64,000 nucleotides of DNA, from positions 64,001 through 128,000 of the forward strand of contig JBGASG010000006.1 in the NCBI GenBank assembly GCA_044229845.1, in the 5' to 3' direction. Shown here piece after piece: positions 5,701-34,918 of the stretch. The DNA is from Candidatus Obscuribacteraceae bacterium. Lineage in GTDB: Bacteria; Cyanobacteriota; Vampirovibrionia; Obscuribacterales; Obscuribacteraceae. The translations under genes were made by a program, and so were the position numbers. The notes below the pieces were generated by a model. The model was given only the letters and a program-made list of their open reading frames with translations. It ran no database searches and had not been told where the DNA came from. Within the stretch, counting starts at the first letter, position 1, and each line of letters begins with the position of its first letter.

Positions 5701-5831
5701 CGAATTTTTCCGCTAACCGGAGCCTGGAAACGCACAAGCCATCAGCCTTCCGGAACATAAACTTTTTTCCGAACTGCATACATTGTGCTTACACAACTTT
5801 TTTGCCCACCCCAAATTTCAAAGGCGGACCG

Positions 5832-9347: not shown

Positions 9348-9456
9348 GTGTGCGTCCGGTAGTCCACGTCGTTGGCAATTTTGCGTCGCCGTGGTTTGCT
9401 AATTGCACATGCGGCGCTGCCAGTTCGAAGCTGCGAAGAGCGCCTGCACTGAGAGT

Positions 9457-9915: not shown

Positions 9916-10322
9916 TGTTTAATTTGTCACCATCGGTGCGGATTTTCGTTTGCACAAAGCCTATCGACATGAGGCGTTCGTTCGACGGGCTATTCGGTCT
10001 TGTTCAATCGCTAGTGCATCAAGATCCATTTTCTGGATCGCTCTTTCTCTTCCGTAGTCGACGCGGCGACTTCATAAAAATTCTCTGGTGGGACCTCGAC
10101 GGCTTTGCCATTTTTGCCAAGCGCCTCGAAGTCGGAACATTTCGTTTTCCGGAAGTGCGGTTCGTGAACGGCGAGTATGAAGCAATCGAGATGGAACGAT
10201 CTGACCTTCTCCTGCTTCTAGAGGGCATCGACACCGATTCTGTGAAGAGATTGAAGCGCTACCGCCGGGAAAGCCCGGATCGAGCCAAAAGCGCCACCCC
10301 AAAAGTACCCGCCATGCGGTGA
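9915..10322 (+). CDS. tnpB: IS66 accessory protein TnpB
   Basis: PIDMRRSFDGL, LFLFRSRRGD.IKILWWD.DG...KRLE.G.F. Confidence 0.95.
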   Translation: MFNLSPSVRIFVCTKPIDMRRSFDGLFGLVQSLVHQDPFSGSLFLFRSRRGDFIKILWWDLDGFAIFAKRLEVGTFRFPEVRFVNGEYEAIEMERSDLLLLLEGIDTDSVKRLKRYRRESPDRAKSATPKVPAMR

Positions 10323-10504
10323 GCGATCAGACCAGTGCCACGGGCTGGTACTTTCGAGAAATGCGGAGTAAAACATAATAGAATTTTCCAAGACGCTGGC
10401 CGGCAATGTCGCCACCATTGGCGGTGCAATACAGATCAGTCAGATCTAAGCTGCAAAATACGGTCCCGAGTAGTACCATATACGGTATCACTCAGGTATT
10501 TGCC

Positions 10505-12049
10505 GTGCCAAAATCCGAAGATTCCGAAAATACGCGCCTCAGAAAAGAAAATGCCCGGCTCCAAAAGTCGCTGGACCGCATGGAGAAGCAGCTCCAAGAA
10601 GCCAATGACGCCAACAAAGAGCTGCGCGCGCTCATGAAGGATCTCCAGGAAAAACTCGACATCCTTATCGTCCAATTCAAAAAACGGAATCGCAAGGACT
10701 TTGGCAACAAGACTGAACGACACAATCCGCGGCCGGCACTCGCTGTCGAATTGTCTCCTCTGACTGCTAAGGAAAAGTCGACTCCAAAACCACGCAATCA
10801 CATCAAGCACATTCTCTCGCAGAACCTTCCCCCTGAGATTGTTCCGCACACCGTTAAGCCGGAAGATGCAACCTGTCCCTACTGCATCGTTGACACCGTT
10901 TTCGTCGGCACCGAAGTGACCCACCAGTTGGAGCGCTTGACTCAAACGCTTAAACATCTGCAGCATGAGCAGGAAGTTCGGGCGTGCCCGAAGTGTAGGA
11001 AGTACATCGTCACCGCAGAAAAACCTTGTTCGCCAATTCCCGGCAGCTACGCCGGACCGGGACTGCTCGCGGACGTCTGTGTGAACAAACTTGCAGACGG
11101 GCTTCCAAACTACAGACAGGAGAAAAGATACAAACGCGAAAGTGCCACCATACCACGGTCCACTCAAAGTGATTGGATGCTGGCTGCCTCGTTTACTGTT
11201 GAGCCTCTGTACGATCTCGTTACTCGACGCCTGCTCCTTTCTCGCGTAATACAGACGGACGACAGCGAACTTAAGGTCCAGGACCGGAAGCACAAGCGAA
11301 AAATGCGCAAAGGCAAAATGACTGTTTACCGCGGGGATGAGAATCACAGGTTTGTAGCCTTCGATTTCTCTCCCGATCAAACCTTCGCCAGGAACATTGC
11401 ATTCCTCGAACAGTTTGTCGGCATCGTACAGGCCGACGCCGCAAAGGGCTTCGACAAGCTGTACGAGGATGGCACCAAAGTCGAGGCCGGTTGTAACGCC
11501 CATTCGCGCAGGAAGTACTACGAAGCGCTGGTGATTGATCCTCAAAGCTGCAACCCGATCCTGGACATCTATCACGCACTTTACGACATCGAAGCGGAGA
11601 TCAAGACACGGAGTCCTGCGGAGAAGCTGGCTGAGCGACAAGCACGATCGAAGCCACTCGTTGGGCAGCTTCACGCCCTGGTTCTCTCTCTTAGTGAGAA
11701 ATTGAACCCTAAACATCCAGTCATGCGCGCCGTCCTGTACACGCTCACTCACTGGCAGGCGCTCACTCGCTTTCTCGAAGATCCTGCCATCAATATCGAC
11801 AACAACGCCGCCGAGCGAGAAATCAAAGACTTCGTGATTGATCGAAAGAATTTCCTGTTCGCAGGCTCGGACGCTGGCGGTAAGTCGATTGCCATTCTCC
11901 TGACTCTCATTGCCTCTGCGAAGCGCAACAAGATCGACCCACGTGCATACCTCACCGACGTGTTTACGCGCATCAACTCCATGAAGACCAGCGAGCTTGA
12001 GCAGCTTCTTCCGGACCGGTGGACGCCAAACCAAAACAAAGTCTCCTGA
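10505..12049 (+). CDS. tnpC: IS66 transposase TnpC
   Basis: Coiled coil, CPYC/CPKC zinc finger, QTDDS, GCNAHSRRK, IDNNAAEREIK, RKNFLFAGS, LLPDRW. GTG 10505 is the likely start (ORF from 10406). Confidence 0.95.
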   Translation: MPKSEDSENTRLRKENARLQKSLDRMEKQLQEANDANKELRALMKDLQEKLDILIVQFKKRNRKDFGNKTERHNPRPALAVELSPLTAKEKSTPKPRNHIKHILSQNLPPEIVPHTVKPEDATCPYCIVDTVFVGTEVTHQLERLTQTLKHLQHEQEVRACPKCRKYIVTAEKPCSPIPGSYAGPGLLADVCVNKLADGLPNYRQEKRYKRESATIPRSTQSDWMLAASFTVEPLYDLVTRRLLLSRVIQTDDSELKVQDRKHKRKMRKGKMTVYRGDENHRFVAFDFSPDQTFARNIAFLEQFVGIVQADAAKGFDKLYEDGTKVEAGCNAHSRRKYYEALVIDPQSCNPILDIYHALYDIEAEIKTRSPAEKLAERQARSKPLVGQLHALVLSLSEKLNPKHPVMRAVLYTLTHWQALTRFLEDPAINIDNNAAEREIKDFVIDRKNFLFAGSDAGGKSIAILLTLIASAKRNKIDPRAYLTDVFTRINSMKTSELEQLLPDRWTPNQNKVS

Positions 12050-12115
12050 ATTTCGCTACCTCAGGAAACCACGCCCCACCTTAATTTCCTAGGACGTGAA
12101 GAACCGGACGCACAC

Positions 12116-12328
12116 CAGCCAGCCAACAAACCGGTTCTCCATTCGCTGTAAGCGTCGTTCGACAAATTGAAACTGTGAGGTCGTGGTAGCCTCGGCGCGG
12201 ACAACTATCCCGTCAAGGACCAGGGCACGAATCATCTGGCATGGTTTGACTCCGTTCGTTTTCGCCAGGCGGAGGATTTCCTCTTCCATCTCGCGAGGGA
12301 AGCGGGTACAGTACTGGGTCTTTCGCAT
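12116..12328 (-). pseudogene. Ribbon-helix-helix (MobC/CopG-like) gene truncated by IS66
   Basis: MRKTQYCTRFPREMEEEILRLAKTNG...RMENRFVGWL aligns with 26164..26559 until the IS66 right end. Confidence 0.8.
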
Positions 12329-12360
12329 TCCTTACCTCGGAACACAAGCGCGGTTGCGCG

Positions 12361-12730
12361 TAATTGTTGAAGCAAGCCTGCGGCTTGCATGCCCCACGGA
12401 GAGTGAGGTGTTCGAGCGAAGTTAGCTCGTCAGTAGCCAGTGACGTGCACGGGGGCGCGTTGTTCCAACAATGCCACCACATATAGAGTCAGTAAGCAAC
12501 ACGCACCTGGTTGTGGAATGGGCTAAATTCCTGAGCCTCCGTCTGTGTCGCGACAGAATGAGAAAGACTACGCAACGATGCCCAAAACGAGCCGCCAATG
12601 CGCGAATGCCGTTCATCGCAGACCGGCAGTACCATTGAGGTGTGCGGCATTCGCGGATAGCGTTGACGAAACCGTGTAACACCGCCGGTGGTGCACGTTT
12701 CGGGTGATTGAAATCATCCTTTTATCCTGC
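12361..12730 (+). promoter_or_regulatory. oriT-like module with a MOBP/RP4-type nic motif TATCCTG^C at 12723-12730
   Basis: GAAATCATCCTTTTATCCTGC preceded by the palindrome at 12679-12694 and next to the RHH gene. Confidence 0.55.
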
Positions 12731-13604: not shown

Positions 13605-16600
13605 TCAAAATCGGGCATCGTTACCGCTAAGCCGCATGAGGTATTTGCTAACGGCAGTTCTGACAAGGATTTCAGCATGCTTGTTAATGCCGAACATACG
13701 ATTGCAATGCAGGTGCACAATGTCGGAGCAAATTTCAGTAACAGGCGTAGACAACTTGCCCTCTGCAGCAAGGGACAGAAGCCTGGAGCAATAAGGATCG
13801 ATTGCCTCACGAAACTGTTGTGATAACGCGATGATTTGGCGTTGGTTCGGCGCGCACCTATCAGTTACATCCGCATCGAGAACAGCTATTATGCTGGTCC
13901 AGCTGGATCTGCAGTCGGCGCTAACCGCACGAAAGTCGTCGGACGAAAATCCTTCCACTAGCATCTGCTTGCCTGTCGTATCGAAAAGTTGGAATGATTC
14001 CAAAATCGACTTCACGGTCGCTACCGCCGCTATCAACTTATTGGATTGCGGTGAGTTAAACAAATACTTGCACACTATCTCGCTGTCACAGTAAAAGATC
14101 GATTCAACCGCATCCAACGCCTCTGGCCCGCCGTAACGCTCCACTTCGCGGTCGTAGGTCTCAACTGAATACTTGGAACACACGCCAGAATAAACCAGAT
14201 CTGAGGCACGTTCGAAGAGAGCAGGTAGCGCCACGCTGCAAACATTGGACGGTTTAACATTGAAGCGCATTCGTAAATGGTCGCATCCATCTCGATAGCG
14301 AATGAAAAACCATTTCTCTACAATATTTGTGAAGAGCTTCGATTCAAGCAAATTCGAGAAGCGCTCCACGACTTCTTCTTGCAAAACATCTGCACATTCA
14401 AGGCGGAGGTAAATCCATTCGCTTCCAGGGGGACGGGTGTAGAGCGCTCTATCGACTGCGATGTTCCTTTTGCCGTTTCTGTCGGGAGTTGGTTGACCAT
14501 GAAGTTTTTTTCGAACAAAACTAGAAACGAATTCCGTGACATAGTGCTCGGTCCCGACGTCATGCCATGTGTGGGTGTTCAAATATTCGATGAGAAGCAG
14601 CTTTCTTTTGTCGCGCTCAGCTTGCTTGAATTCTCGTCGCAGAATAGCTAGGTCGGACGAATGAGAAAGATTCAGCAGAAGGGGGTTGTCATCGTCAAAG
14701 CTCTCGGCGAGCCAGACCAAGTCCGGGATCTGATAATCTGCTTTTGCTTTCTCAAAAGTTTCCTCAAAATGCTGATCGATGTTCACCATCGATTGAATGG
14801 ACCAGCGCGCTGAGGCCAAGATAAACCTTTCGAAGGTCACTCTCGGGAGATGCACCATTTGCTCCGCGCACCAGCCCCAATTGAATGAGCTGAGCGAGAA
14901 GCAATCTTGCCAAGCTACGTCTACAAGAAACCTGATCGTATCGGGAAGAAGCGCGCGTGACAATAAGTTTCTTGTGCGAAACAATAACCTCTGTCCTGTT
15001 CGTGACCACTGCGCAAAGAATTTGCCTGACTCAATTCCTATTTCAATTTCGGATAGCGGTACGCTTGTACTACCGTGAGACGGTAAGCAGCCTGAAGACG
15101 TGCTGAAATTACACTGAAATGAGGCAAGAGCGATGTTCAGCAGTCGGGCGTTCGCCGGCCAGTAGTTTGCATCGACGATTAGGTGATCATCAGCTGAATT
15201 TGCCTCACACTCGAATATTTCAGACAATGCGTTTGAGCCGGTCTCGCTGAACAGACGCGCGAATCTTCCCATCGCTCGCCCCGCTCCATCATCACCCACG
15301 CGGGGAGAGACTAATAGTTCGAACTTGCCATCGTCAATTTCCGACTGGGAATTGGCAACAATTTGAAAAAACAAATCGACCGACAGCGGCGCGGTTGACT
15401 CGTCTAGGTCAAAAATCGACAGACGCTGAAGATCTGTATCTGAAAGCTCAACGGGGTTACCTTTGCTGGTTTGCGCAAGTTCGAATAGAAAAGCTTCACG
15501 ACTCCAACGGTCGGTTGTGTCGGTCGCTACGTACCTCTCACCATACGGGGAACCCAGCCCGAAAGTGTCACTGATCAAAGATAGCAAAGGCACCACTCTG
15601 TCAACCTGGTAACGCTGTTCGAACGCTCGGAGGTATGGTGTCAATTTTTCGTTTTTAGTTGAGCTAATTTGCACGAGCAACCTGACCAAACGTGCCAGGT
15701 CTGCCGACAATTTGGAATTCAGGCGAGCGCTTTCAAGACGCATTTGGGTGTCTATTTGAAGCGCGTTATCGCTTTCGGAATACCCCGGAACCCGAGCCAT
15801 CAGGTCTAAATAATCTCTAGGCGACACCGGCTGATTGCGGGTTGCAGATTCTTGTATGTCACGGAGAGCGCCAACTACAGGCGGTGTCTCGACCGAATTC
15901 GCGCCAAAATACGATATTACGTAGTCACAGGGACTCTCGGTGTTCAGTGGAAACCGCAAGGTGGATATCAAAAATCCTTCTTCGATTAGCTCATCAACTA
16001 ATCCGTCAGAAACGCTGCTGGCGACGCCGAACGCGTTGGAGACAGACTCACTTAGTGTCTGGAAAGAGGCAGCATTGGAACGGCAGAGACTTAAAAGATA
16101 TCGCACTGGTTCTGTGGCTCTGATGTGTGTGGTCTGCTGCTGACCACTGGTCAAGTCGCGATTTGACCAAACTCGATTATCTTGGATTGCGATCTCCGGA
16201 TCGGTCACGTAAGACAGTTTTCGCCTAGACTGGCGGTCGGTTTCTAACTCTGAAATTACTGCGCCGAGGCAGGACATGTCCACTCTAAGCTTCGGCACGA
16301 CTTCTCCGGTACGCCTGATGCTGGTATCACTGCCAAAAGTCGCGAGGTCGACGCCTGCAAACAATCCGTACGGAGTTGGACGAGTCCCCATTCGTCTAAA
16401 ATACTTGAATGACTTATCAATAGCTTCTTCGCTGTCCTTTGTGGTGAATGCAAAATAGAGAGATGGGCTGCCTATTGCTAAGGCCGTTTCGAAAAGTTTC
16501 TGATGAGATTGGGGTGGTGAGCACATCATGCCGATTTCAAACGGCAGCAAAGGAGTGCGAACAAGCAAAGGTCCGACTTGTTCGTACTGAATGCTTGATG

Positions 16601-16622
16601 CGAATTTGAGATTCTGTCGCAT
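13605..16622 (-). CDS. lanB: Class I lanthipeptide dehydratase (LanB), glutamylation plus elimination domains
   Basis: 1005 aa with LLVRTPLLP, RMGTRPTPYGLFAGV, GRAMGRF, HLPRV, WFFIRY.D...HLRMR, YDREVERYGG and HLHCNR. Confidence 0.95.
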   Translation of the reverse strand: MRQNLKFASSIQYEQVGPLLVRTPLLPFEIGMMCSPPQSHQKLFETALAIGSPSLYFAFTTKDSEEAIDKSFKYFRRMGTRPTPYGLFAGVDLATFGSDTSIRRTGEVVPKLRVDMSCLGAVISELETDRQSRRKLSYVTDPEIAIQDNRVWSNRDLTSGQQQTTHIRATEPVRYLLSLCRSNAASFQTLSESVSNAFGVASSVSDGLVDELIEEGFLISTLRFPLNTESPCDYVISYFGANSVETPPVVGALRDIQESATRNQPVSPRDYLDLMARVPGYSESDNALQIDTQMRLESARLNSKLSADLARLVRLLVQISSTKNEKLTPYLRAFEQRYQVDRVVPLLSLISDTFGLGSPYGERYVATDTTDRWSREAFLFELAQTSKGNPVELSDTDLQRLSIFDLDESTAPLSVDLFFQIVANSQSEIDDGKFELLVSPRVGDDGAGRAMGRFARLFSETGSNALSEIFECEANSADDHLIVDANYWPANARLLNIALASFQCNFSTSSGCLPSHGSTSVPLSEIEIGIESGKFFAQWSRTGQRLLFRTRNLLSRALLPDTIRFLVDVAWQDCFSLSSFNWGWCAEQMVHLPRVTFERFILASARWSIQSMVNIDQHFEETFEKAKADYQIPDLVWLAESFDDDNPLLLNLSHSSDLAILRREFKQAERDKRKLLLIEYLNTHTWHDVGTEHYVTEFVSSFVRKKLHGQPTPDRNGKRNIAVDRALYTRPPGSEWIYLRLECADVLQEEVVERFSNLLESKLFTNIVEKWFFIRYRDGCDHLRMRFNVKPSNVCSVALPALFERASDLVYSGVCSKYSVETYDREVERYGGPEALDAVESIFYCDSEIVCKYLFNSPQSNKLIAAVATVKSILESFQLFDTTGKQMLVEGFSSDDFRAVSADCRSSWTSIIAVLDADVTDRCAPNQRQIIALSQQFREAIDPYCSRLLSLAAEGKLSTPVTEICSDIVHLHCNRMFGINKHAEILVRTAVSKYLMRLSGNDARF

Positions 16623-16626
16623 GGCT

Positions 16627-17892
16627 TTATGACACCATCATTAGCCGATCCCACATCGGCTCTCTATTTGTTGTTGCTGCCAGCAAAGCCAATGCAACGC
16701 CAGAAGCGCCCGTTACAAAGCTGGGATCATCAACTAAGTTGTCCCCGAGGTCAGGCTCCCGAAATCCAAATTTGTATTCGGATCGAAATTCTTCTAATAG
16801 TCTATCGATCAGTGAAATGGAGTACATACTTGGTACCGATGTCTCATTGCAAAAGCGTAATGCTATTAGCAATCGCCCCGCGAGCCCGTGGCACAGTGTT
16901 GCTCCATTTTCCGAGTCAAGTATTCTCGGATTGGAAAGAAGTTTTTCAATCCCCATAATGGCGAAAGATTTGTGGTCTGCGCAAGACAATGCTTTTCCCG
17001 CTAACCAAATCGACCTCAGGACGCCGGGTCCACCGTAACACCAGCCGTCGTGACTCATTTCGCGAAAGTCTTGATTCCGTGGCACTTTATATGGCCATCT
17101 GATTGAATCTTCCGATTTGACCGCAAGACTTTGAAGCCAACAAGCGAGCATGTCGATCGTTTCGCAAAGGCCATCCGCATCGACTCCTTCAATGCGAGCA
17201 ATTGAGAGGGAAGCGAGCACGCCGGGCATGCCGTGAGCAAGCCCACAGTTGATTAGCCCACTTTCGTCCGCCACGCGATCAGATAGAAAGTTTGTGAGTT
17301 TTTGCGGCAAAAATGGACCTGGAAAACGCACGAGCTTGATAAGCGTGTCTACTGAGTGGACTAATACATTCTCAATCGAACCAGCCGAGCGCCTTGCTAT
17401 CAGATAACGCATCATTCCGCTCAATCCACTCACCACATCATAATCAGATTGGTCGATATTGGTCACAGCAGAGAGGTCCCGAATCTTTTTAGACCTCAAA
17501 AAACATTCGGAACTTATTTGCAAATCCGTGCTTTCCAAAAACCTCTTGTGTCGGTTCGGACCGTCGTGCAGCATGAGTGCCAACAGCCCCAGTTGCGACA
17601 ATCCTTTAGATAGTGCACCACTCCGACATGACACCGTGTGAAAAATCGCCGCAGAGAAGAACTTCTCCGCAAAGAATTCGTGTTCCCAATCCCCCCTAGT
17701 GTAATAAAGAAATTGATAGAGCACTGCCATAACAGCCAGGTCAAAGGGATTCACACGCCATTGGGTTCCGCGAGTCGAAATGATCGCGTGGTTGCCTGAT
17801 AGCCTGCGCAGACGGTCCGCGACTGATGAAGCTACGGCTATGGCTCGGTCAGCTTGTTCTCCCGAGCAAACACTTTTCCATTCAGCGTTCAT
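16627..17892 (-). CDS. lanC: Lanthionine cyclase (LanC)
   Basis: YDVVSGLSG, GLAHG, WCYG and LCHG zinc-ligand motifs. Confidence 0.95.
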   Translation of the reverse strand: MNAEWKSVCSGEQADRAIAVASSVADRLRRLSGNHAIISTRGTQWRVNPFDLAVMAVLYQFLYYTRGDWEHEFFAEKFFSAAIFHTVSCRSGALSKGLSQLGLLALMLHDGPNRHKRFLESTDLQISSECFLRSKKIRDLSAVTNIDQSDYDVVSGLSGMMRYLIARRSAGSIENVLVHSVDTLIKLVRFPGPFLPQKLTNFLSDRVADESGLINCGLAHGMPGVLASLSIARIEGVDADGLCETIDMLACWLQSLAVKSEDSIRWPYKVPRNQDFREMSHDGWCYGGPGVLRSIWLAGKALSCADHKSFAIMGIEKLLSNPRILDSENGATLCHGLAGRLLIALRFCNETSVPSMYSISLIDRLLEEFRSEYKFGFREPDLGDNLVDDPSFVTGASGVALALLAATTNREPMWDRLMMVS

Positions 17893-19135: not shown

Positions 19136-20344
19136 TTAGCTTGTACTGGGATTTCTGGGGTTAAACAACCTTAGAAACTCTTTGGTGATCTTTTCCATAG
19201 GCTCACGGAGCCTCTCGATATCAACTATGATGTAACCGAATGTGGTGTCGTTTTTCCCAGAATGATTTGCCAGCTTTTTCAGAACGACGTACGAAAAATC
19301 CAGTCGCTCGGCCATCGTCAAAAAAGTCCGTCTCAAGTCGTGCAACACGAAGGGGCAAGCAGCATCTTCAATAATTTTGTCGATGGCATAACCGCAGTCT
19401 ACCATGTGGCTCTTGCCACCTCGTCCAGGAAAAACAAATTCTGATGTTCCGCGCTCCGCATAGCGGCGAGCCAACAGGTCTTCCAGAAACGCACTGAGCG
19501 GCAACCGATGTTCTTTGTTGTTCTTCGAAACCTCCGCGCGCACGGTCAAAACTTTCGCGGCGAAGTCGATATTATCCCAGCGAAGTGTAGCGGCTTCGTT
19601 CCGGCGCAAGCCGGTGAGCAGCAAGAGCACCAGATAGTCTTTCACCTTCTGCTGCGGGAGCGACATGACCGCGTCGTACCAGGCGGGTAACTTGTGGTCT
19701 GGTATCAGCGTTTGACGTCTGCGCTCTTGATACCACTGGCGGTTATGCGAAAGTTTGGTGACCGGGTTCGCAGTGATGATCGGTTTGCCTTCAATCTCGT
19801 AGTTAGCGGCGGCAAAGTTCAACAGTGTACCGAGCACGTGCATGACGGTATTTGCTTGCGCCTCGCCGGACGTACCCTGGCGTGTCGGCTTGCGCAAATC
19901 GGCATGACGCTGCTGCACCATTTCGCGGGTGATGGCTGCCACCGGCAGATCTACCCAGTCACCGAGACAACGCGGAATGAGATATCTATAGGTACGTTTT
20001 GTGTTGGGCTTCAGGTTGCGTACCGAGAGGTAGTGTTCCAAGACCTCCTGCAATGTGACGCCCGCCACCTTCCTTTTAGCTCTCTCCGCCGTTGGATCTT
20101 TTCCGGCGGCCATCTGCGCCAGGAGCTTGAGCGCTTTTGCTCTGGCGGCGGTAGCTGTCAATCTGGTGTGGTCGCCGAGGGTAATCCTGCGCACGACGCC
20201 ATTGACTCGGGCTTCGACTATGTACGTCTTGCTGCCAGGCGTGACGCGCAGCCCGAATCCGGGCAACGCGCTGTCGCGATAGAAGACCTGCCCTTTCTCT
20301 GGAAAAGGCAATGTAGACACGAATGTATTTGTTAGTTTCGGCAT
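19136..20344 (-). CDS. Tyrosine integrase, paralog 2
   Basis: TGLRRNE, HDLRRT, NHS..TFGY; start MPKLT at 20344. Confidence 0.95.
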   Translation of the reverse strand: MPKLTNTFVSTLPFPEKGQVFYRDSALPGFGLRVTPGSKTYIVEARVNGVVRRITLGDHTRLTATAARAKALKLLAQMAAGKDPTAERAKRKVAGVTLQEVLEHYLSVRNLKPNTKRTYRYLIPRCLGDWVDLPVAAITREMVQQRHADLRKPTRQGTSGEAQANTVMHVLGTLLNFAAANYEIEGKPIITANPVTKLSHNRQWYQERRRQTLIPDHKLPAWYDAVMSLPQQKVKDYLVLLLLTGLRRNEAATLRWDNIDFAAKVLTVRAEVSKNNKEHRLPLSAFLEDLLARRYAERGTSEFVFPGRGGKSHMVDCGYAIDKIIEDAACPFVLHDLRRTFLTMAERLDFSYVVLKKLANHSGKNDTTFGYIIVDIERLREPMEKITKEFLRLFNPRNPSTS

Positions 20345-20450
20345 GCTGTCTGCTTCTTGAAATTTGGGGTAGATTGTTAAGCTGTGTAGACGCGGTGTAG
20401 ACACTTTTCAAAACGGCCGGTTGGCTGAGATGCCCATGGAAAGCCATGCT

Positions 20451-20600
20451 TCGCGCGCCAAGACGCCATGCCCTCATGCCCGAATAGCGGCGGACCGGGT
20501 TCCTCCAGTCAAGGCTGGCTCCGAAGGAGACACCGCGAAGCGGTTTAGCCTTGACGGGAGGGGGCCGCCGCTTGGCTTTTGCCGGGCATGGCGCAGGCGC
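20451..20600 (-). promoter_or_regulatory. Conserved hairpin upstream of integrase, copy 2
   Basis: AGCGGCGG..GTCAAGGCT..AGCCTTGAC..CCGCCGCT; homologous to 5551-5700. Confidence 0.6.
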
Positions 20601-21223
20601 GCGCAGCTATCGCCATGGACCGCCGGATCGATGCCGGAGGCAAGATGCGAATGCTGGGCAAGTTCGACTGCTATGCGGCGACCAGGCTCTTCAAAGGACG
20701 GCAGGTCGTTTCGTGGGGCAGGCTGCTCTCAGCGGGGCAGGCGAGTGCTGTTGAATTTTTAGGCGAGTTCCTGAAAGAGGAACGTTGTTGTTGATTCACC
20801 GGAGGCGGTTTCGTCAACCCTCTGGTGAGCGGCGGCGCAAGTTAATCGCGCATTGATCTAGGTGCGTGCTACTGCTTGCACGAATTCATCATACCGAGTG
20901 CCGCAGTCCTGCGGATATCGGGATAACCCTATCGACGCCGACGCGAGAAGCACTGCATATGGTGCGAGGATAGGGGAGCGTATCGGCAAGCCAAAAATTG
21001 AATCAGAAAACGTCAGCAAGTGTGGGTTGAACAAAGAGGATGCAGTAGTCATCCATCCAGGAAGCTGGTACTGTGTCAAACGAAGACCGCTTTCAGGCGC
21101 CGACCTGACGTTCTTGTTGCGAAAAGTGCCTCGTGAATACGGCGCAGATTGAGCACGACAGAGAGAGGCGGAGCGATACCACGGTGGTGACGGAAAGGCT
21201 TGAGAAGAATGACTGAAACGCAA

Positions 21224-23264: not shown

Positions 23265-24491
23265 TTACTGCGCTTTCTCGGGGTGTGGTGAACTTTCAGA
23301 AGCTTCTTGGGACACTCTCGCCTTACACAGGGTTAGAAGCTCGTTGGTGGCTCGCAGTCTCTCCACATCTACTACAACATAACCGAAGGTGGTGTCATTC
23401 TTGCCGGAATGGTTCGCCAGCTTTTTCAGAACGACATAAGAAAGCGCAAGTCTTTCTGCTACCGTGAGGAAAGTTCGCCTGAGATCGTGAGGCGTGAACG
23501 GACAACCGATCTTTTCCGCGAATGCATCTATCGCGCAATCTGAGCTTACCATGTGGACTTTTTTGCCACGTCCAGGAAACACATATTCGGCGTCTCCGCG
23601 CCCTTCGTATCGTCGCTTCAGCAGCTCTTCCAAGAAGTCACTCAATGGAAGTCGATGCTCTTTTCCGTTCTTTGCGATCTCTGATCTAACGGTGAGGACT
23701 TTGGCGTCAAAGTCAACGTCTTCCCAGCGCAAGGTGGCAGCTTCGTTGCGGCGCAATCCGGTGAACAACAGAAGCAGAAGATAGTCCGTCACTGCTTGAC
23801 GCTTCAGCAGCATGACCTCTCGAAACCACTCGGGCAGCTTGTGGTCTGGAATTATTGTCTGCCGCCTGCGCTCTGGATACCAGCGGCGATTCTGCGACAG
23901 ACGCTTGACGGGGTTATATATAATGATGGGTTTTTCGTCTATCTCGTGGTTTGCGGCGGCGAAGTTGAGCAGCGCTCCGAGCATGTGCATCACGGTGTTC
24001 GCTTGTGCCTCTCCTGACGTTCCTTGCCTGGTGGTCCTGCGCAATTCGGCATGGCGTTGCTCGACCATGTCCCGCGTGATTGAAACCACCGGCAAGTCGA
24101 GCCAGTCTTCCAGGCAGCGCACGACCATATAGCGGTAAACCCGCACGGTGTTCGGCTTGAGATTCCGGACTGAGAGAAACTGTTCCAGAATTTCGTGCAA
24201 CGTCACTCCGGTGATCTTTTTCTTCGCCTTCTCCACCATCGGATCTTTACCGGCGGCCATCATGGCTTGCAGTTTGCGCGCCTTTTTCCGCGCCGTGGTT
24301 GGAGTCAGGGGTCCACTTTTGCCCAGGGTGATTCTTCTGGCGACTCCGTTGACCCGAGCTTCAACGACGTACGTCTTGCTTCCGGGCGTCACCCGTAACG
24401 CGAGCCCGACAAGCACCGTGTCCCGATAGATTTTCTGGCCTCGCTCCGGAGGCTCCACTTCATTCACAAACTTTTGGGTCAATTTGGGCAT
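23265..24491 (-). CDS. Tyrosine integrase, paralog 3
   Basis: Full catalytic set. A short in-frame gap follows the Tyr (ERLRATNE vs ERLREPMQRITNE). Confidence 0.95.
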   Translation of the reverse strand: MPKLTQKFVNEVEPPERGQKIYRDTVLVGLALRVTPGSKTYVVEARVNGVARRITLGKSGPLTPTTARKKARKLQAMMAAGKDPMVEKAKKKITGVTLHEILEQFLSVRNLKPNTVRVYRYMVVRCLEDWLDLPVVSITRDMVEQRHAELRRTTRQGTSGEAQANTVMHMLGALLNFAAANHEIDEKPIIIYNPVKRLSQNRRWYPERRRQTIIPDHKLPEWFREVMLLKRQAVTDYLLLLLFTGLRRNEAATLRWEDVDFDAKVLTVRSEIAKNGKEHRLPLSDFLEELLKRRYEGRGDAEYVFPGRGKKVHMVSSDCAIDAFAEKIGCPFTPHDLRRTFLTVAERLALSYVVLKKLANHSGKNDTTFGYVVVDVERLRATNELLTLCKARVSQEASESSPHPEKAQ

Positions 24492-24624
24492 TTCGTCGCC
24501 TTTGATTTTGGGGTGGTATGTAAAGTTGTGTCGTCACTATGTCGACGACTTGAGAAAAAGTTGCTTCCGCTATGGCTGATTGGATGGGGCTTTCCGACGT
24601 TTACTGCTTTTTGATTTCAAAAAT

Positions 24625-24761
24625 CCGCGCCAAGTCGCCATGCCCCCATGCGGAATAGCGGCGGACCGGGTTCCTGCTGTCAAGGCTGGCTCCGAAGGAG
24701 ACACCCCGCAGGGGTTTAGCCTTGACAGTAGGGGTCCGCTGCTCGGCTTCAGCCGGCATGG
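24625..24761 (-). promoter_or_regulatory. Conserved hairpin upstream of integrase, copy 3, with IS110 inserted at its outer edge
   Basis: CTGTCAAGGCT..AGCCTTGACAG and GCGGCGGAC..GTCCGCTGC. Confidence 0.6.
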
Positions 24762-24880
24762 AGATTTCCCGTCAAATGTCAATCTGGTGAACGCGCGCAA
24801 ACAAGTTCGCCAGTTGCGAAGCAACTGGCACCGTATTCAGTGCACTTCGATGTCGAACTAAGACGCTTTGAAGTGTGGGT

Positions 24881-25762
24881 TTACGTGGTTTCGTGCTTTC
24901 CTTGCGCAAGAAGGCGTTCAGAGAATTCTCTGATCTGGGGATTGTGTACTCGCGCGGCGCGTGCCGGCATGAATAAAGCTCCCCTAACTGCCGCACTTCC
25001 TCGTTTAGAAATACGATCCTTTTCTCTCACTGATATTCCTGATGCGTGTTTTCGGCTGGTCAATCCGAGAAAGCATGCTAAAGACCGACTTGAACGAAAG
25101 CGCCGGAAATCAATAAGCGTGAGTAGGGTGACCGCTGATCTGTCAGCTATTCCAGGGATCGTGCACAAGAGCGTGAAATCGTTGCTCAGAACAGGGTGTT
25201 GACCGATTAGCTCTTTGGCCCGCCCCAGGGTTTGCTCTAAATTAGACTCCGCCATCGCCAACTCGGCTTCGAGCTGCTGTTTCACAAACTTGGAGCGGAG
25301 TCCACATGCAAGCTGGCATCGGATTGCCACAGTTCGCTTTGTCAGCGAACGAATCAATACTACCGTGTCTCTCAGCTCCCACTCTAAGTTCGTCTTTGGC
25401 TGCCACTGAGGAAGTTTGTCAGAACGCTCTTTGCAGTATTCTGCGAGCAGGTACGCTGCCTTCCGATCAGAACGAATGCGAATCTCGTGTGATTCAGCGT
25501 ACTTCGAAAACTTGAGCGGCTGCGCCAAAAAGACGCGCGTCTTGCGTTTATGAAAATACTCAGCAACGATTTCACCGTATCGCCCGGTCGGTTCGATGAC
25601 TAAGTCGATACTCTGAATGCCGTTCTCTTCAAGCCATTTGACACAGGCTCGAAGTCCATGAGCATTTCGCGCAAAGCGCTCGGAAAGTGCTTTACCATTT
25701 GGTGGTAGAACGCAAATGTCAAACCATGGTTCGGATATATCCGCACCAGCTGGAACCTTCAT
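24881..25762 (-). pseudogene. IS110 recombinase/transposase, C-terminus disrupted
   Basis: GADIS, IEPTGRY, RSDRKAA (the fourth acidic residue reads Ala), TIPGIA, LGL..SG.S, ISKRG. Stops right after GKH, without the usual A.xRK.L helix. Confidence 0.8.
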
Positions 25763-25784
25763 AGAACCTCTTTCTATTGTAGTG

Positions 25785-25955
25785 TGCGGATCGAAGCAGC
25801 GGCCTTATCCGAAGCTCTTATACGGTTTCACGAACGTGACCAAAGATTTCCCTCGGGTTAGACTATTGCTGCGGTGAGAGGAGAGTCGCAAATCTCCATA
25901 TGACAGGTTTTGCACTGGGCGCAGGCTCGGTTTACTCTCCTCTCTCCGATCTCTC
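25785..25955 (-). ncRNA. Putative IS110 bridge RNA with target-binding and donor-binding loops
   Basis: Two stem-loops whose loops contain GCCTGCGC, ATGGAG, GGGAAATCT and TATAAGAG, matching the four junction halves. TTGACA lies upstream at 25988-25983. Ends are approximate. Confidence 0.75.
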
Positions 25956-26163
25956 AATAATTACCTAACCACATATCAAAGCTGTCAAGTTCAATATAAG
26001 AGCGCAGGCGCGCTACCATCGGGATGGATTTTTGGCGGATGGATTTCCAGCGGCGTGATGTGGAACCGCGGAACGTCAGGCTCCTTGCCGGATTTGAGCC
26101 ATTCGAATCGCCCATGCGCAACGTTGAGTGCGCGGTACGCTTTCGGTGGCCTTCTCGGGCTTG

Positions 26164-26559
26164 CTATTCCTGGTCCAGATGCTCCTGGTCATCTTTGAGA
26201 TGGCTGGAGGTCTTTTGTTGCAGAAATTGCCTCGCGAAGCTTTGCGCCAATTGCTTCAGTGCTATTTGGTCCTTCTCATCAACCTCGTACAGAGCGAGCT
26301 GCTCGGTGAAGAACCAGACCATCGAGATGGCTTTGCTCAGTTTGATCATCCAGCCAGCAAATCGGTCTTCCATTCGCCGCAGACGCTTCTCTACGTAGGC
26401 GAATTGGGAGTTGGTGGCTGCCTCGGCCCGGGCGACAATTCCGTCGCGGACCAATTCACGCACCATCTCGGCGGGGGTGAGCCTGTTCGCTTTCGCCAGT
26501 CGGGTGACTTCTTCTGCCATCTCCTTTGGGAAGCGAACACAGAATTGGGGTAAACGCAT
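26164..26559 (-). CDS. Ribbon-helix-helix protein (MobC/CopG-like relaxosome accessory candidate)
   Basis: QFCVRFPKEMAEEVTRLAKANRLTPAEMVRELVRDG fits a beta-helix-helix pattern; lies next to the oriT-like site. Confidence 0.7.
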   Translation of the reverse strand: MRLPQFCVRFPKEMAEEVTRLAKANRLTPAEMVRELVRDGIVARAEAATNSQFAYVEKRLRRMEDRFAGWMIKLSKAISMVWFFTEQLALYEVDEKDQIALKQLAQSFARQFLQQKTSSHLKDDQEHLDQE

Positions 26560-27684: not shown

Positions 27685-30600
27685 TTATTCAATGCCATAA
27701 GTGTCCATGCATTCCTGGACGCAATCATCACGTGTTTCCTCGGCTTGTCTTAGCTTAGCGCGTTTCTCATTGCCTTCGGGCATTGAGTCGACCTCTTTCA
27801 GATCAATTCGGTACCAATCATCGCAATCCTTGCAGCAATCGTCAAACGGATCCTTGTCCGGTTTTTGTTCTGGAGGATCATCGTGCCCGTCTGGCGGAGG
27901 CGGTCCTCCTCCTGCTCCGCCCATAATGACGGTCTCATCTGTCGGCGTCACGGGTGGACCGTCATCTTCGTCCTCGTCCTTCGGGCATGGATTAGGTGGT
28001 TGCGGATTAGGCGGTTCAGGCACAGGTCCCGGAGGCTGACTCTGATTGAATTGCTGCCAGAGCCATAGCAAAATGTCCATTAGGTCCATTTTTCTGATTA
28101 CGGCATTACCGCTTGGGTCCCTCCACATAGTCGGGCGATTCCCAACATATCGATATAGATTGAGGCCGCCCCTTTCTCCGATGCGATCGCGCGAAATGAA
28201 TCTACCGATCTTCGCGTTGTAAGCCCGCGTTCGAGTAAAGTTGAGCCCACTACGGGCATGCAGATAGTAACCGGCGAACTGAAAATCGCTGTCCTGCATA
28301 CTCTCAAGCGTCTTAGTCCTGCCAAAGGGATCAAAGCTATAAGAAGCCTGCACATCGCCGCTGTCGTCCGTCATTGTCCAGACGGAGCCAAGATGGTCCT
28401 TGTTGTAGAAATAGCTTGTTGAGTTATCGATCTGCCCGCGCGAGAAAAACTGCTTGGAGGCGTTTCCGCTGCCGTCGCGCTCTTCGCACCGAGTACTACC
28501 TGACCAAATATGCTGCTTGGTGCTGGTGACGCTGCTCGCAACGGTCTCCACAATTTTGACCATTCTTCCGAATGGGTCATATGTGAAAGCCGAGTTATTT
28601 CCCGAACTGGGATAAGTAATCTGAATTAGGCGGTTTTCGGCGTCCCATGCGAAGGAATTCGTTCCGTCGCTGGTTAAATTGCCGTTGTCGTCGTAGGTCA
28701 GCGTTTGGCTGCCAGCGCCCACCACTTCTAGCTTGTGGGTATTTGTTGTTGTACCGCTTCCGCCGCCGGCGGTGGCGCTGACGTTGACACTGTTACTCCC
28801 CGACGACAGCGCCGCGTTCCCAGAGAAATTCTGAGATGTCGTCATATCGACGGCATTTCCTGCGACAGTCACCGGCAGTACCGGTCTGTCGGTGTTTCCT
28901 TGGAAGTGGGCATTGCCACCGGCAGAAATGCCTGTCAGTTCGTTGACCGTATTGAAGGTCGCTTGAGAGGCCCCAATGTTCTTGCTCAGGGCAATCGTCT
29001 CGGTAGCGCCGCCACTCAGCGATTTGGCATACGTGGTCGCGTTTTTGGACGCAGAGATGAGGTTGACGACCGAGACACCAGATGTCGGTGTCACAGCAGT
29101 GGCGGACACACTTATCCCTTGGAGGTCCGTGTCGGCATTGATATTAGTCGCCAGTCCTGAGGCAATCGAATTCAGGGTGTCGCCGCTCTGGACCGTGTAA
29201 TTGACGGCTTTAGAGCCGCCGGACAAGCCGGCGTCGTAGACCGTTATTGTGAGTACATTGCCTGTTGTTTTGGTCCCACCAATGACAGCGGTCACCGTGC
29301 CGTTCGCTGGAAGGTCCCAGAGAATGGTTTCGGTTGCGCTGGTACTTCTCGACGGAAGGTAGGTGGTAGCATTTCGCGAGACAGATGTGACTGTTAGCAC
29401 AGTTCCTGATGATGAGGCAGAAACGCCTACAGCTTTCAGATCCGAGTCGGCGTTGAGTGCCGATGCGAATCCGCTGGTTATGGACGTGAGGTTGTCTCCG
29501 CTTTGAACTGTGTACGAAACGCCCTTAGACCCGCCGGATAGTCCGGCATCGAAAACCGTCAGAGTTAAGACATCTGCTGTTGTCTTGCTTCCGCCGATGA
29601 GGGCGTTGACGGTGCCATTCAAGCTTGGCCCGAGAGCGACAGTTTCCGTACCAGCGCCCGTGACCGACTTCGTGAAGGTCGTGACATTTGGCGAGAGTGA
29701 CTGAATGGCGATCACCGGTCCATTGGATGTCGCAGTGATGCCGGCTCCCGAGAGACTCCCGCTTCCGTTGATGGATGCCGTCAGAGCCGTGGCAATCGAG
29801 GTCAGCGTGTCGCCACCCTGGACTGTGCGGCTAACGCTCGTAGAACCACCGCCGAGGGCTGGATCATGAACGGTTATCTGAACGACGTCGCTCGTGGTTG
29901 GCGTGCCCCCGATAGTGGCGTTATGCAGAGCTGCATTCACGCCGAGGCTGGCGGTTTCTGTTGAACCACCGCTCAAGCTGGTCGCGAAGGTAGTCACGTT
30001 AGGAGACTTCGAGCGCAGCGTCACCGTGGTCCCGCTCGAAACAGCATCGATTCCAACCGATTGGCAATCGGAGTTCGCCGTTATCGTTGCAGCCAGATTG
30101 GCGGCAATCGTCGTTAGCGTGTCTCCAGAGAGCACTGTGTAAGCGACCGCTTCCGTACCTCCGCTCAATCCGCTGTCAGTTGCGGTGACGGTGATGACGT
30201 CACTAGTGGTTTTGCTGCCGCCGATCACGAGATTCTGGACCTGGCTCGTTTGCACGTCAGTCCGGTTGGCTGCGGAGTCGTAGGAGAAGAAGTGCTGGTC
30301 CGCGAATGGCGCGGGCAACACGCCCTTACCACTTACCGCTGCCGTCAGTTGACCTGCAGCGTCGTAATCCAGACCGAATCCCACGTGCCGGGTTTTCTGC
30401 TGCTGCATCCAGCGAGTGATTTGCCCCGTTGGATCTTGCGCATAGTTGAATTGAGACAATGCTTGCGAATTCGGATCAAGATTCCTTATCTCGCGTAAGC
30501 GTTGATCTTGATCGTTGCCGTACCAATCAAATGCAGTTGTTTGACCATTCGGATATGCGATACTGGCTAGTCGGGATTGTCCCTTTGAGACCCCGACGCC

Positions 30601-33600
30601 ATCATCTACATAGGTGAAGTCGAATTGTCCCAACTCGTTTGTTTCTGAGACGACGCGAGACATGCCGTCATAGACCCAATCGATCGAATTGTTTGTACCA
30701 TCTATAGAGCGGTTCGTCGTTCTACCCAATTCGTCATATTCAAAAGTGATATCAGAATTTGGAATTACCGTGTTCGTGATGGTTGCTAGTCTGCCACCAC
30801 CGGTGATGGGTGGATCGGTGGGATCCGTGATGTAATCGTTGTATTCATATTTATATGAGCCCCAACCATTGCGTGCCTCAATCAGGCGGTTGTAGTGGGT
30901 GTCATACGAATTGAGCACAGTAGAAGTCGCGTTGACTGCATCAACATACTGCAGCGAATTCAGAGTACCGTCCCAAATCCGATAATACTGCGTCTCCTGT
31001 CCGAGCGCATCTCGCTTGATTGCAAGGGCATTGCGATTTGTCTCCCAGATATATTTTGTGGTTGCATTGTCTTCCAAGACCTTCTCGATGACACGACCTT
31101 GCAAGTCGTGATTCCAGGTTGTTGTATGCCCGGCAGCATCGGTGAGTTCGCTGAGCGAACCACAAGAGCACCAGGTGTAGGATGTTTTCCTGCCTAGCGG
31201 ATCAATCTCGAATGCGAGCTGGTCCATGTTGTCGAATGAGCGTTGTGTGGTTCTCCCGAGACGATCTATGAAGAAGATCGCGTCAAGGTCTTGGAACACT
31301 GTCTGCTGCGTGGTCTGATCAGGAAATGTCGTTTTGACCAAACGATCCATGTCATCGTAGTCAAACGACAATGTGTAACCTTCCGCATCCGTGCTTGACG
31401 CGAGCGTTCCGTTTTCATTCAAGACCAGGGTTGTGACATCGTCTTCTTGAAGCGGACCGGTTATTTTTGTCAGGAAGCCATAGGCGACCGGCGACAGGGA
31501 GACGGTTACGCCGCCGGTTACCGCCTGGCTATAGCTCGTCGCGTTGACCGAAACAGACTTGATGGTCAAGTCTGCACCACTTGCACTCGCCGAAACGCCG
31601 AGGGTCTGCAGATCTGTATTGCCATTGATATTGGAAGCCAATGATGCGGCGACGTTGCTAGCCGTTTGTCCCGGCGTAGCGGTGTGAGATACCGTCTCCG
31701 AGCCACCAGGCAGATCCGGATCAGACACGGTGATGCTTGCCTGGTTGCCCGAGCTGATGGTGCCGCCTATGGTGGCATTCTCCGTTGACGTGTATTCGTA
31801 CGTCGTCACATTAGAAAGGGGATCCGTGACAGAGGTGAGCTGCCCGAAGACATTGTAGGTCATGTCGGTCTCTTGTCCTGAGCCGTCCATTTTTGTCAGC
31901 GGCAGATGTTGGCTGTTGTATGTGAATGTCCCAAGGACGAAATCATTGCTGTCGCGCGTTTCGTGAATTTCCTCCAAATCAATATTGTTTGCGGCATACT
32001 CGTAGGAAATCTCGCGCCCGGCGGGATGAGTAGTTAGCCCAGAACGCACCGACTCCCCAGCCCAAGTGACAAAAGATCTTGTTACCGCTCGCAGAGAAGG
32101 AGCAATTATGGGAACGACTGAACGAGTCATCCGTTAGCATGTATGCAACTTTCTGAGCGATCGTTTCCAGCGTGTCTCCACTGACGACAGTGTACGAGAA
32201 GACTGGGTAGGTAGGTGGATAAGCCGAGTGCAAGTAGACAATGTCGCCGGCAGTTGGTGTGCCGCCAAAAACTATGTTCACGGGAGAGCGGCTCCAGTCC
32301 TGTTCCAGCTCCGCTGTGAAAGTCTCGGTAGCGCCGCCTGATGTCAGAGCCTGCGGATAACTGTAATAGACATCTTCGGGAGTTACAACCAGGTAGCCGT
32401 CGTCCATCTCAGCGTAAATTCCACGCTTGAGAAATTCGCTGTCGTTGTTGACCAGGTCGCCCAATTCTTCGAGTATATCGTTGGCGGTGTCGCCGCTCTG
32501 CACCGTATATGATACCGTTTTCACTGCGCCCGGCAGCAGGTTGTTCCAGATCCGCACCGAGAGAATATCTCCTGGTGTGATGGTGCCCGTAATCGAAAAA
32601 CGCGCTTTCAAATTATAGTCATTTCGTTGCGTGATTGCGCTCGGCCGGTTTAGTGTGTCGTAGAAGCCTGAAGAGATTTGATTCGGGTACGTGTATGCAA
32701 TCTGAGACTCAAGCGGATTCTTTGAAGCACGTGCAATTGGCGCAACATTAGCTGAGAAACCCTCAGCAAACCACGTTGTCTTGCGGCAGTGCGAAAATAT
32801 CCGGTTGGTTGGATCATTTGGGTAGCGTGCCATGGCCTCGCGGTCCCAGTAGTGCGTTTCATTTTCATGATCCAGAGTGTGCTCAATAACAGATGTGGTG
32901 CCATCAGGATAAGCGAAATTCAGTCCGCGTCCTGGGTACACATAGCCGGTCGAAATCGTGTAACTGTCAAAATCAGTCGTACCATACGGCGTCGTCAAAG
33001 ACTCGCAGAAAGCGCTTCCGACGTCATATGTGAAAGTTGATTCAATGCCAACGGCGTCAGTAATTGCCTCCAGAAAATAGTTGCCATCGTAGGAAAAGGA
33101 GCAGTCTCTGCCAAATGGATCGTGGATCGCAGAGATCAGGAAGAAGTCCGGGTCGAGCGGGTTATTTGATGCATGATCAAACGTGGTCACATTTCCGTTA
33201 GCATCCGTCACCGACTGGATTCGAAAGTCGACATCGTAGGCGACGGTTGCACTATTGCCTTGTGGATCAATCACTTCTGTCATGAAGTAGTTGTCGTTGC
33301 CGTCATCCAGATCGAAGACTTCAATCGAGCCGTCCGGTAATTCGCGGTGATAGACACCGGCACTTGGAACAGTCAATTCCGCTACGGACATGACATCTGG
33401 ATCGTAAGGATCACCTGAATTTCCTGTGTAGTCATGCGGCTCTACGCCACCGTCGCGCAAGTGTACCGTTGCGTTATTTGAACCGTCTATGGAGATCCAA
33501 GACACCCAGTTAGTAGACCAGTTCGGTCCAAGATTGGAGAACGTAAACGTAGCAGGTTGCTCAATTTCATTCTGGCTGTAATTGACCGCAAATCTCATGT

Positions 33601-34918
33601 CAGGACCGATTGGACAGTTATAGGACAGTGGCTCATCACGAATGTTCAACTCTGCTTGCATGGTCCATGCGGTTGCCACCGCCATGCCACCACATCCGCA
33701 GTTGGGACCGGTGCATTGATTCGGATGGTCTGAGCCTTTGTTTTCGTTACTTGTTTGCATGTAGCCTTTGCCGAATATATTCGCGGCTACAGAATCTGAA
33801 ACAGGCTCCCAACCAGCAGGCAATTCTCCTGCCGGCACAAGAAAGAATCCATCACTCTCCGAATCTATAGCTCGCTTGCTTACCCAAAGTTGCCCGTTTC
33901 GATCAAAGGTCGGATCTTCAATATGGAACTTGCTGTCCTTCAACTCAGTTAGCGCGCCATAGTGTCCTGCACGCCAATGCATAACAGCCGGCAATAACAC
34001 GTCAGCTCCAGGGGATCGCTTAGCAATCTGCATATTCAAGCCGCCCTTCTGGGCCAGCTGCTTAACCTCGAGCAACGAATTGCCCTTGCTGGTCGACTTT
34101 GCTTTGCGAATAAATGAATCGGCTGGCACCGGAGTGCCCTTAAGTTCCATCAGCGTTTGTACGGCAAAGGGTCCGCATCTAAATGCATCACCTGGCGCTT
34201 TCTGCATGACCTGGACCGCATCGCGTGCTGCGGAAACTCTCTCACTGGATGAACCCACCATCGGACGATTTCCAATTTCAGCCAGTCCGACTTTCATTTC
34301 GTCCAATCTGCCAAGCATCCCCTCTAAGAAGAGAAGTTCTGAAAGAGCACGTTGAGCCAGTTGAGATTGCTCCTTTCCTTTTGCACTCTTCGACTGCTGC
34401 CATGAGGTATTCAGCAGGGCAAGTGCCTCGCTGATATAACCTGTTTCTCGGCGGAGCAATCCGACGTTCAATGCAAGCGCAGCATTCCAGCGCGAGTTAG
34501 GATGCGTATCCATGAATGAAGTAATTGCAGATACGTCTTCCGGGTCATTCTTCGCCTTGAATGCAATCAAAGCCTTCGCAAGCTCCGCATTTTCTCCGGC
34601 CACTCGTGATCCAGTCATTGCCACCAGTGGTTCGGAGAAGGACCTCGATCTAAAAATTTCGGCATCAGTAGGAGCTGGTGACAGTACAAATTGATGTTTG
34701 CGCGCAGTCGACATGGCAGCTCGTTCCTGGGCGCTGACAGCGCCAATAGGATTGTGAGGCATCTTCTTTGGTGCATGTCCGTGCGGCGCTCGCCTCATCG
34801 GATGAACCGGCTCGGCTGCCATTACCGGCAATACCGCCTGGGTGAAAACAACCAGGATTGACATAAGGCTACTCATGCCTTTTTTCAGAGTCTGGTTATT
34901 CTTGGAAGTGCGAAACAT
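27685..34918 (-). pseudogene. Giant Rhs/YD-repeat protein (signal peptide, C39 peptidase-like domain, YD shell, inserted repeats, core, Cys-rich tip), split by a frameshift near 32025
   Basis: Overlapping ORFs 31979..34918 and 27685..32130. Motifs RCGPFA..HW..GHY..IEDP, DPxG/YD repeats, NKDHLGSV, GRFISRD and DPSG. Confidence 0.88.

Follow-up and report, generated by a model that had tools for sequence, protein, structure and literature searches.

The locus described here raises the question of why an IS110-family insertion sequence (IS) lies exactly at the base of a hairpin in front of an integrase gene, and whether its guide was shaped to bring it there. The IS lies in a 64,000-nucleotide stretch of DNA from a Candidatus Obscuribacteraceae bacterium (assembly GCA_044229845.1, contig JBGASG010000006.1, positions 64,001 to 128,000), which we call the window and within which coordinates are counted from the first base. 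An earlier note, made from the letters of this DNA, read target and donor guides in the leader of the IS and proposed that the element is programmed to hitch-hike on the integrative elements around it. We have followed this proposal through the host genome (G000, 88% complete), 103 other genomes of the family, sequencing runs and the literature.

Results

The IS and its putative bridge RNA

The IS occupies 24762–26002 on the minus strand, both CT cores included, and measures 1,241 bp in the window and 82 bp more in its other copies. Read along the minus strand, a 240-bp non-coding left end precedes the recombinase ORF (25762–24881), which is followed by a short right end. At the left junction the target half GCCTGCG (26009–26003) and the CT core (26002–26001) together span 26001–26009 and lead into CTTATA; at the right junction GGGAAAT (24770–24764) is followed by the second CT core (24763–24762) and CCATG, with core and target half at 24757–24763. 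The leader contains a target-binding loop (25876–25944, minus strand) in which an 11-bp stem (25944–25934 with 25886–25876) encloses the left target guide (LTG), GCCTGCGC (25926–25919), and the right target guide (RTG), ATGGAG (25899–25894), which a U at 25900 may lengthen to TATGGAG. The donor-binding loop (25796–25872, minus strand) comprises a GCAGC/GCTGC outer stem, the left donor guide (LDG), GGGAAATCT (25852–25844), an inner hairpin and the right donor guide (RDG), TATAAGAG (25822–25815). All four guides match their target or donor halves at the junctions. When the 228-nt leader was shuffled 5,000 times with dinucleotides preserved, LTG occurred 10 times, RTG 358, LDG 9 and RDG 41 times; at least two guides occurred jointly five times and all four never, so that the junctions and guides described in the earlier note are borne out.

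Directly after the right guides lie the bases that would form the ‘handshake’, AU at 25893–25892 in the target loop and CU at 25814–25813 in the donor loop. By the rule given for IS621 in the available part of PMC11208158, the target-loop AU pairs with donor positions 7 and 6, and the donor-loop C with target position 7. The closest named relatives of the IS are in Candidatus Obscuribacterales genomes. In nine complete relatives, with recombinases 41–60% identical and differing targets, the guides co-vary with the flanks, which confirms an IS110 element with bridge-RNA guides; this count omits the IS110 elements of genome G001 (42% identity, with other ends and guides) and four loci (L022, L024, L028 and L031) with one junction missing or not located. 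The donor-loop handshake pairs with target position 7 in 10/10 elements and the target-loop handshake with donor position 7 in 9/10 by script, the exception (L016), mislocated by the script owing to a short match, fitting by eye.

The structural evidence is uneven. Of the 12 pairs of the target-loop stem, 10 have changed in a compensatory way. A single-sequence fold of the leader is no better than chance (z = −1.16). The concern that such a fold might bury the guides in stems holds in part, in that three of them are partly paired (unpaired probabilities of 0.30–0.72 for LTG, below 0.1 for two RTG bases and 0.01 for the first two LDG bases), whereas RDG is open (0.82–0.98). The donor-loop outer stem is seen in the single fold and is missing from the consensus fold. 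In the latter, the DNA-level right donor and its guide also pair with each other, an artefact that arises because the folded sequence extended beyond the probable start of the RNA on its upstream side. Taking pairing and covariation together, we infer that the leader RNA is a bridge RNA with target and donor loops.

A −35 box, TTGACA (24777–24782, minus strand), lies in the right end of the IS and a −10 box, TATATT (25993–25998, minus strand), in the left end, and only across the junction of a circularised element do they come to lie 17 nt apart, in a sigma70-like arrangement. The same 17-nt arrangement is present in eight of nine relatives (9/10 elements with the window copy), and a promoter scan found none in the integrated form. 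The circle joint was not found among the contigs of four sequencing runs. One contig of an RNA run (X16, share 0.14) covers 25924–26178 and crosses the left junction, so it is not evidence of expression.

The recombinase

The recombinase gene (24881–25762, minus strand) encodes an N-terminal DEDD RuvC domain, PF01548 (E 6e-15), and a C-terminal domain, PF02371 (E 1e-21). In a fold search, a model built for the complete protein found IS621 and ISCro4 (E 1e-20, TM 0.73), and identity to IS621 is 29–32%. In the window 82 bp are deleted at 24891/24890, which cuts the ORF to 293 aa with loss of the C-terminal helix, and the truncated ORF scores 136 bits against NF033542, for which the cut-off is 140. 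The missing 82 bp are present in a second copy of the IS on contig C13 of the host genome and in contigs of all three DNA runs, and the protein is found in a 328-aa form on 15 contigs and in the 293-aa form on one. Thus the recombinase that the earlier note took to be damaged is indeed broken in the window, but the deletion is private to this assembly, being either an assembly error or a private lesion. A different population variant, interrupted or truncated near 25078, was seen in run X3 (P0036, 233-aa product).

A second peculiarity is shared by the whole local family. The acidic residues D8, E57 and D99 are present and the serine and glycine of the SG motif, the catalytic S241 and G242, are invariant in the alignment, but the fourth DEDD position is Ala102, leaving the tetrad incomplete. 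Ala102 aligns to D105 of IS621, where 31 other homologues in the alignment have Asp, and it occurs in all near-identical copies (P0001, P0035, P0036 and both assembled G000 genes). An incomplete tetrad bears on activity, not on descent. As far as the available text of PMC11208158 goes, mutation of D105 abolished recombination by IS621, and D105 touches the metal only through water. The Ala102 variant therefore either works or was moved in trans.

Copies in the host genome

Besides the window and C13 copies, G000 has a left and a right end of the IS at the ends of contigs C1 and C22, which are probably one third copy split over two contig ends. All three copies sit at the same base of a hairpin of about 160 nt that precedes the gene of an Arm-domain tyrosine integrase. 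In the window, the IS separates the arms of the basal stem, with the 5′ arm at about 26013–26003 and the remainder of the hairpin at 24621–24761 (minus strand), before the integrase gene at 23265–24491 (minus strand; PF13356 and PF00589). Covariance-model scores are 111 bits for this interrupted hairpin versus 163 and 153 for two intact ones nearby. The first of these (5545–5705, plus strand) precedes an integrase gene at 5685–7043 and has a near-target at 5553–5565 with T for C at position 10, a G–T wobble; the second (20449–20606, minus strand) precedes an integrase gene at 19136–20404 and has a target at 20598–20587 that is short of two core bases. Both near-matches had been pointed out in the earlier note, and both are real and empty in G000. 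Among the six hairpins of this genome, the three with a perfect rebuilt 13-mer are all occupied and the three with imperfect targets (5553, 20590 and C1:1064016) are all empty. No unoccupied perfect 13-mer was found in G000, and two perfect 11-mers are unused, which suggests a role for the two additional bases or for the surrounding hairpin.

The IS copies differ by no substitution over 1,236, 120 and 108 aligned bases, whereas their flanks diverge from those of the window copy by 6.6–10.7% (C13) and 14–16% (C1); to the right of the IS, the flanks on C13 and C22 are just 1.7–3.8% apart. Identical copies in divergent flanks favour separate insertions. Among the entries listed for short-read contigs of three runs, there are no variants within the IS and many in its flanks. 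The assembled C13 copy has homopolymer indels, as is often the case in long-read assemblies. From these comparisons the insertions in front of the integrase gene were probably repeated and independent, with the polishing of repeats as a caveat.

Contigs of run X10, from another population, extend this picture. On one (depth 5.7), the left end of the IS is joined to a 5553-type flank, from which it follows that the near-match site is usable; on another, the right end is joined to CT-CC-TGGGG, an unrelated flank outside any hairpin. The flanks of the loose ends in X10 and X3 were not found in G000. One-sided and off-target insertions have been described for IS621 in the part of bioRxiv 10.64898/2026.08.31.748434 that was available. 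Other copies at unrelated sites would have told against the proposal of the earlier note, and here the answer is divided, the three G000 copies lying in hairpins and one X10 contig having an unrelated flank.

The target hairpin

Searched with a covariance model, 68 of the 103 other family genomes contain the hairpin. Across 42 copies, two-sided changes occur in 32 of 43 pairs and 94.5% of cells pair, values that lean high since the alignment was fitted to the model. Rfam gave no match for the window at the gathering score, nor for the hairpin at 5450–5850 up to E 5. It was claimed that the target is the conserved base of this hairpin; the structure is conserved, but the 13-nt target is not, as none of the 42 aligned copies elsewhere carries it perfectly, one has a single mismatch, six have two and 35 have three or more. 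Judged as a specialist for mobile elements, the IS keeps to one site in 3/3 G000 copies, yet has one unrelated right flank in X10 and a target that varies across the hairpin family (7/42 within two mismatches).

Of 24 loci sampled, 15 have the hairpin where a long ORF ends, and these ORFs are homologous (16 ORFs tested); the ORF resembles archaeo-eukaryotic primases weakly, below the cut-off. Neighbouring genes encode KfrA, ribbon-helix-helix (RHH) proteins, relaxases or toxin-antitoxin systems, and the contigs are plasmid-like. We infer that plasmids and integrative elements may use the hairpin as a signal for single-strand initiation or as an origin. In genome G065 (L360–L362) a multicopy element of 1.5 kb contains the hairpin together with a transposase-like ORF of 386 aa (IS256-like by eye), and the genome has 14 matches to the hairpin model.

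Homologous hairpins also harbour a second lineage of IS110 elements, with 33% identity and an IS621-like donor, at AGC-CT-AYCA, a position about 20 nt deeper in the hairpin. Its members there are L279 (G106:C244; rebuilt site E 7e-7) and L290 (G113:C183), and the G106 copy carries an entire hairpin in its right end; no match to the hairpin was obtained for the third close member (G076) or for four distant ones. By eye, AGCCTACCA is present in 13/42 hairpin copies, which makes this second lineage the better candidate for true programming against the hairpin. L114/L289, where an IS110 element lies about 330 bp from a hairpin and outside it, was considered as a second case and dropped.

The host elements

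The reading of the neighbours as integrative elements holds up. Twenty-five identical bases, beginning AGATTACTTATCC, occur within the long rhs gene (28622–28598, minus strand) and at the head of an orphan rhs fragment (23125–23101, minus strand), and these att-like copies, the putative left and right ends of the host element, bracket a 5.5-kb unit. Its order is rhs tip, small ORF, RHH gene, hairpin with IS, and integrase gene; no relaxase was seen in it. The RHH gene (26164–26559, minus strand) encodes a 131-aa Arc-like protein (Arc E 6e-4, below the cut-off). An rhs-core fragment follows the integrase gene within 1.2 kb in 5/8 cases in G000 and in 7/12 cases in six other genomes, and these fragments begin nearly always at ITYP codons, with a sharp break at AGATYACTTATCC in G000. 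Further integrase/rhs sites are at 7174, 19006 and 3120 in the window, on C13 and C1 of G000, and at L386, L387, L389 and L390. The host elements look like circles that integrate at a fixed rhs-core site (AGATYACTTATCC), bringing a new toxin tip in and leaving the old tip downstream. Elements integrated at tRNA genes are ruled out here, as there is no tRNA in the window. We found no report of att-specific rhs integrases in the open-access literature.

Several other features of these islands may be recorded. Contig G014:C40 has a tandem array of integrase/rhs units. The long rhs gene of the window (27685–34918) is split into two ORFs that overlap (peptidase C39, RHS repeats, LysM), which may reflect an assembly frameshift. 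IS66-family elements gather in the same islands (window 9346–12115; C1:1064310–1067035; C13, C20 and C22), and on C1 such an element lies between the hairpin and the start of the integrase gene. More homologues of the RHH gene lie by IS66 ends (C13:45850–46264; window 12116–12490), here without an adjacent hairpin or integrase gene. Genes for a LanB dehydratase and a LanC cyclase are within the island at 13605–17892 of the window.

Where the guide fits

The sequence read by the target guides also occurs outside hairpins. In sister elements (G072, G081 and G085), a set that overlaps with the nine relatives used for covariation, a perfect 7-bp inverted repeat ends 20 of 25 left junctions, the kin being non-independent, and most of the remaining junctions look like imperfect copies of inverted repeats; the sister elements of this clade thus lie in REP-like palindromes. 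The pattern GCRGGC-N5-GCCYGCGCTCC, the tail of which is the target of the guide, is present in 19 of the 103 other genomes, with up to 109 copies in G070 and 68 in G076; it has no occurrence in G000 or G001, and a reversed control gave none. All 26 such repeats in G081 continue with AT. In that genome 36 sites read GCCYGCGCTCCATA, and three are the exact 14-mer read by the extended guide TATGGAG; at position 14 the hairpin carries G, which can form no more than a wobble with that guide. Exact 13-mers number 41 in the other family genomes, none of them inside a hairpin. Three of four repeat-rich genomes have a RAYT-like Y1 gene, and the pattern occurs once beside one of these and related motifs beside another; since this tie is seen at few loci we term the repeats ‘REP-like’.

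The window IS itself was never found in a REP, and its nearest relatives (65% and 58%) are known without flanks. No close copy was found in the 103 other family genomes (best match 60%), and a plasmid collection gave no match. Viral contigs gave none to the 18-nt left junction; 98 stretches in them match the 15-nt circle-junction pattern, which we take as chance. No report of this IS was found in the open-access literature, where supplementary tables (e.g. Supplementary Table 1 of PMC11208160) may list relatives.

Discussion

By descent the element is an IS621-type bridge IS110 that would work in the same way, and the targeting of REPs and of mobile DNA is already known for such elements. It shares with IS621 of E. 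coli, as far as the accessible text of PMC11208160 and PMC11208158 describes it, the non-coding left end, predicted target and donor loops, CT core, circle-formed promoter, handshake bases, the RuvC plus Tnp fold, and a lineage that targets REP-type palindromes. It differs in having a natural RTG of 6–7 nt rather than 4 nt, Ala rather than Asp at the D105 position, and a site in a mobile-element hairpin where IS621 sits in REPs. IS4321/IS5075, in the inverted repeats of Tn21, and ISKpn4/ISPst6, in attC sites, are also IS110-superfamily elements with targets in another mobile element, some of them in folded DNA; in the part of PMC11187229 available, these are IS1111-type, with the non-coding region downstream and subterminal inverted repeats, whereas the RNA of the window IS is upstream. 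Membership of the IS1111 group is excluded, all guides being upstream of the gene. ISPpu10, from what could be consulted of bioRxiv 10.64898/2026.03.19.712850, has a conserved intergenic target with a stem-loop, the measured effect of which can be to raise efficiency, and tolerates a G–T wobble at one RTG position, a tolerance that agrees with insertion at the 5553 site. For the host elements, the nearest parallel is the displacement of rhs C-termini (Jackson 2009, PMC2935791; Steele 2017, PMC5727410, as far as these were accessible), in which a full rhs gene is likewise followed by strings of orphan cores and tips; here, many orphans follow their own integrase gene and start at one fixed att-like sequence.

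We lean, with some reserve, towards the view that this is an IS621-type IS with a guide from a REP-targeting lineage, which lands in integrase hairpins where the perfect matches of this host happen to be. Circularisation would join the −35 box of the right end to the −10 box of the left end; the boxes are seen, and expression from them is expected by analogy with IS621. The leader RNA would then bind the recombinase, its loops reading donor GGGAAAT-CT-CTTATA and target GCCTGCG-CT-CCAT(A), and the handshake bases would aid exchange at CT, a pattern seen here with its chemistry borrowed from IS621. The guide is of the kind usual in a clade directed at REP-like palindromes with GCGCTCC at their end. 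In a host with no such repeats, one subfamily of integrase hairpins has the same 13 bases, and all its members would have been hit separately, the occupancy being observed and the history conjectural. Riding on the elements would be a consequence, and a likely costly one because the basal stem of the hairpin is broken. What the earlier note saw as programmed hitch-hiking thus stands in so far as integrative elements were hit repeatedly at their hairpins, but shaping of the guide for riding is not established, and the apparent hitch-hiking may be a by-product, not design.

Several facts sit uneasily with a REP-derived guide. Use of the 5553 near-match in X10 means that hairpins are hit beyond the exact subfamily, the second IS110 lineage in the same hairpins makes targeting of such a structure evidently selectable, and the sharing of 13 bases between REP tail and hairpin base is a coincidence that wants explanation; the incompleteness of G000, its unused perfect 11-mers and the failure to find any copy of this IS in a REP count on the same side. 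The guide may instead have been selected in this lineage for the hairpin of integrative elements, with the IS travelling along, and all the hairpin insertions in G000 and the 5553-type junction of X10 agree with this, as do the RTG G at position 10, which pairs with C and T hairpin variants alike, integrase-linked hairpins in other genomes that are just two or three mismatches off, the second lineage, and the precedents of IS4321/IS5075 in Tn21 ends and ISKpn4/ISPst6 in attC (PMC11187229, in part). Such natural retargeting is possible, though we think it rather unlikely, given that the REP tail is at least as good a match to the guide (14/14 versus 13 plus a wobble), that no other hairpin copy has the perfect target and that no spread by riding is seen among the 103 genomes; an insertion that splits the basal stem and a host element without a relaxase or conjugation gene speak against it too. 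A broader version, in which the hairpin is a recurrent landing pad for at least two unrelated, naturally programmed IS110 lineages and this IS switched from REP to hairpin and rides on integrase elements that exchange rhs tips, we regard as unlikely.

The history of the copies can also be read otherwise. That one old insertion was copied with the elements, or that the IS copies were homogenised by gene conversion or assembly polishing, would suit the relatedness of the occupied elements (the C13 and C22 right flanks), the homopolymer indels of C13 and a third copy split over contig ends. We consider it highly improbable, because an unsubstituted IS lies between flanks as divergent as those of C13 and C1, the short-read entries listed from three runs place their variants in the flanks and none in the IS, X10 has the IS at a 5553-type flank, a far more divergent element, and C1:1064016, a sibling of the occupied subfamily, is empty. 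Compatible with either history of the guide is the idea that the local IS family is catalytically dead through Ala102 and owes its movement to a different IS110 recombinase acting in trans. The loss of recombination on mutation of D105 in IS621 (PMC11208158, as available) and the Asp of the 31 homologues point that way, but the Ala allele seems to have reached several sites, a search of the 88%-complete G000 found no further IS110 recombinase gene, and the metal contact of D105 in IS621 is indirect, which together leave the idea quite unlikely.

As an IS110 element, the IS adds to the known bridge systems one whose right target guide is naturally long and whose active site has an unusual Ala; should the Ala102 protein prove active, the fourth DEDD residue would not be a universal requirement. 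On the favoured reading, a REP guide diverted onto a mobile element in a host without the repeats shows how specialists for mobile elements could come about. The host elements may be of greater importance than the IS110 itself: if their integrase truly inserts at a fixed rhs site, it would provide a site-specific mechanism for the displacement of rhs tips, which has so far been ascribed to homologous recombination.
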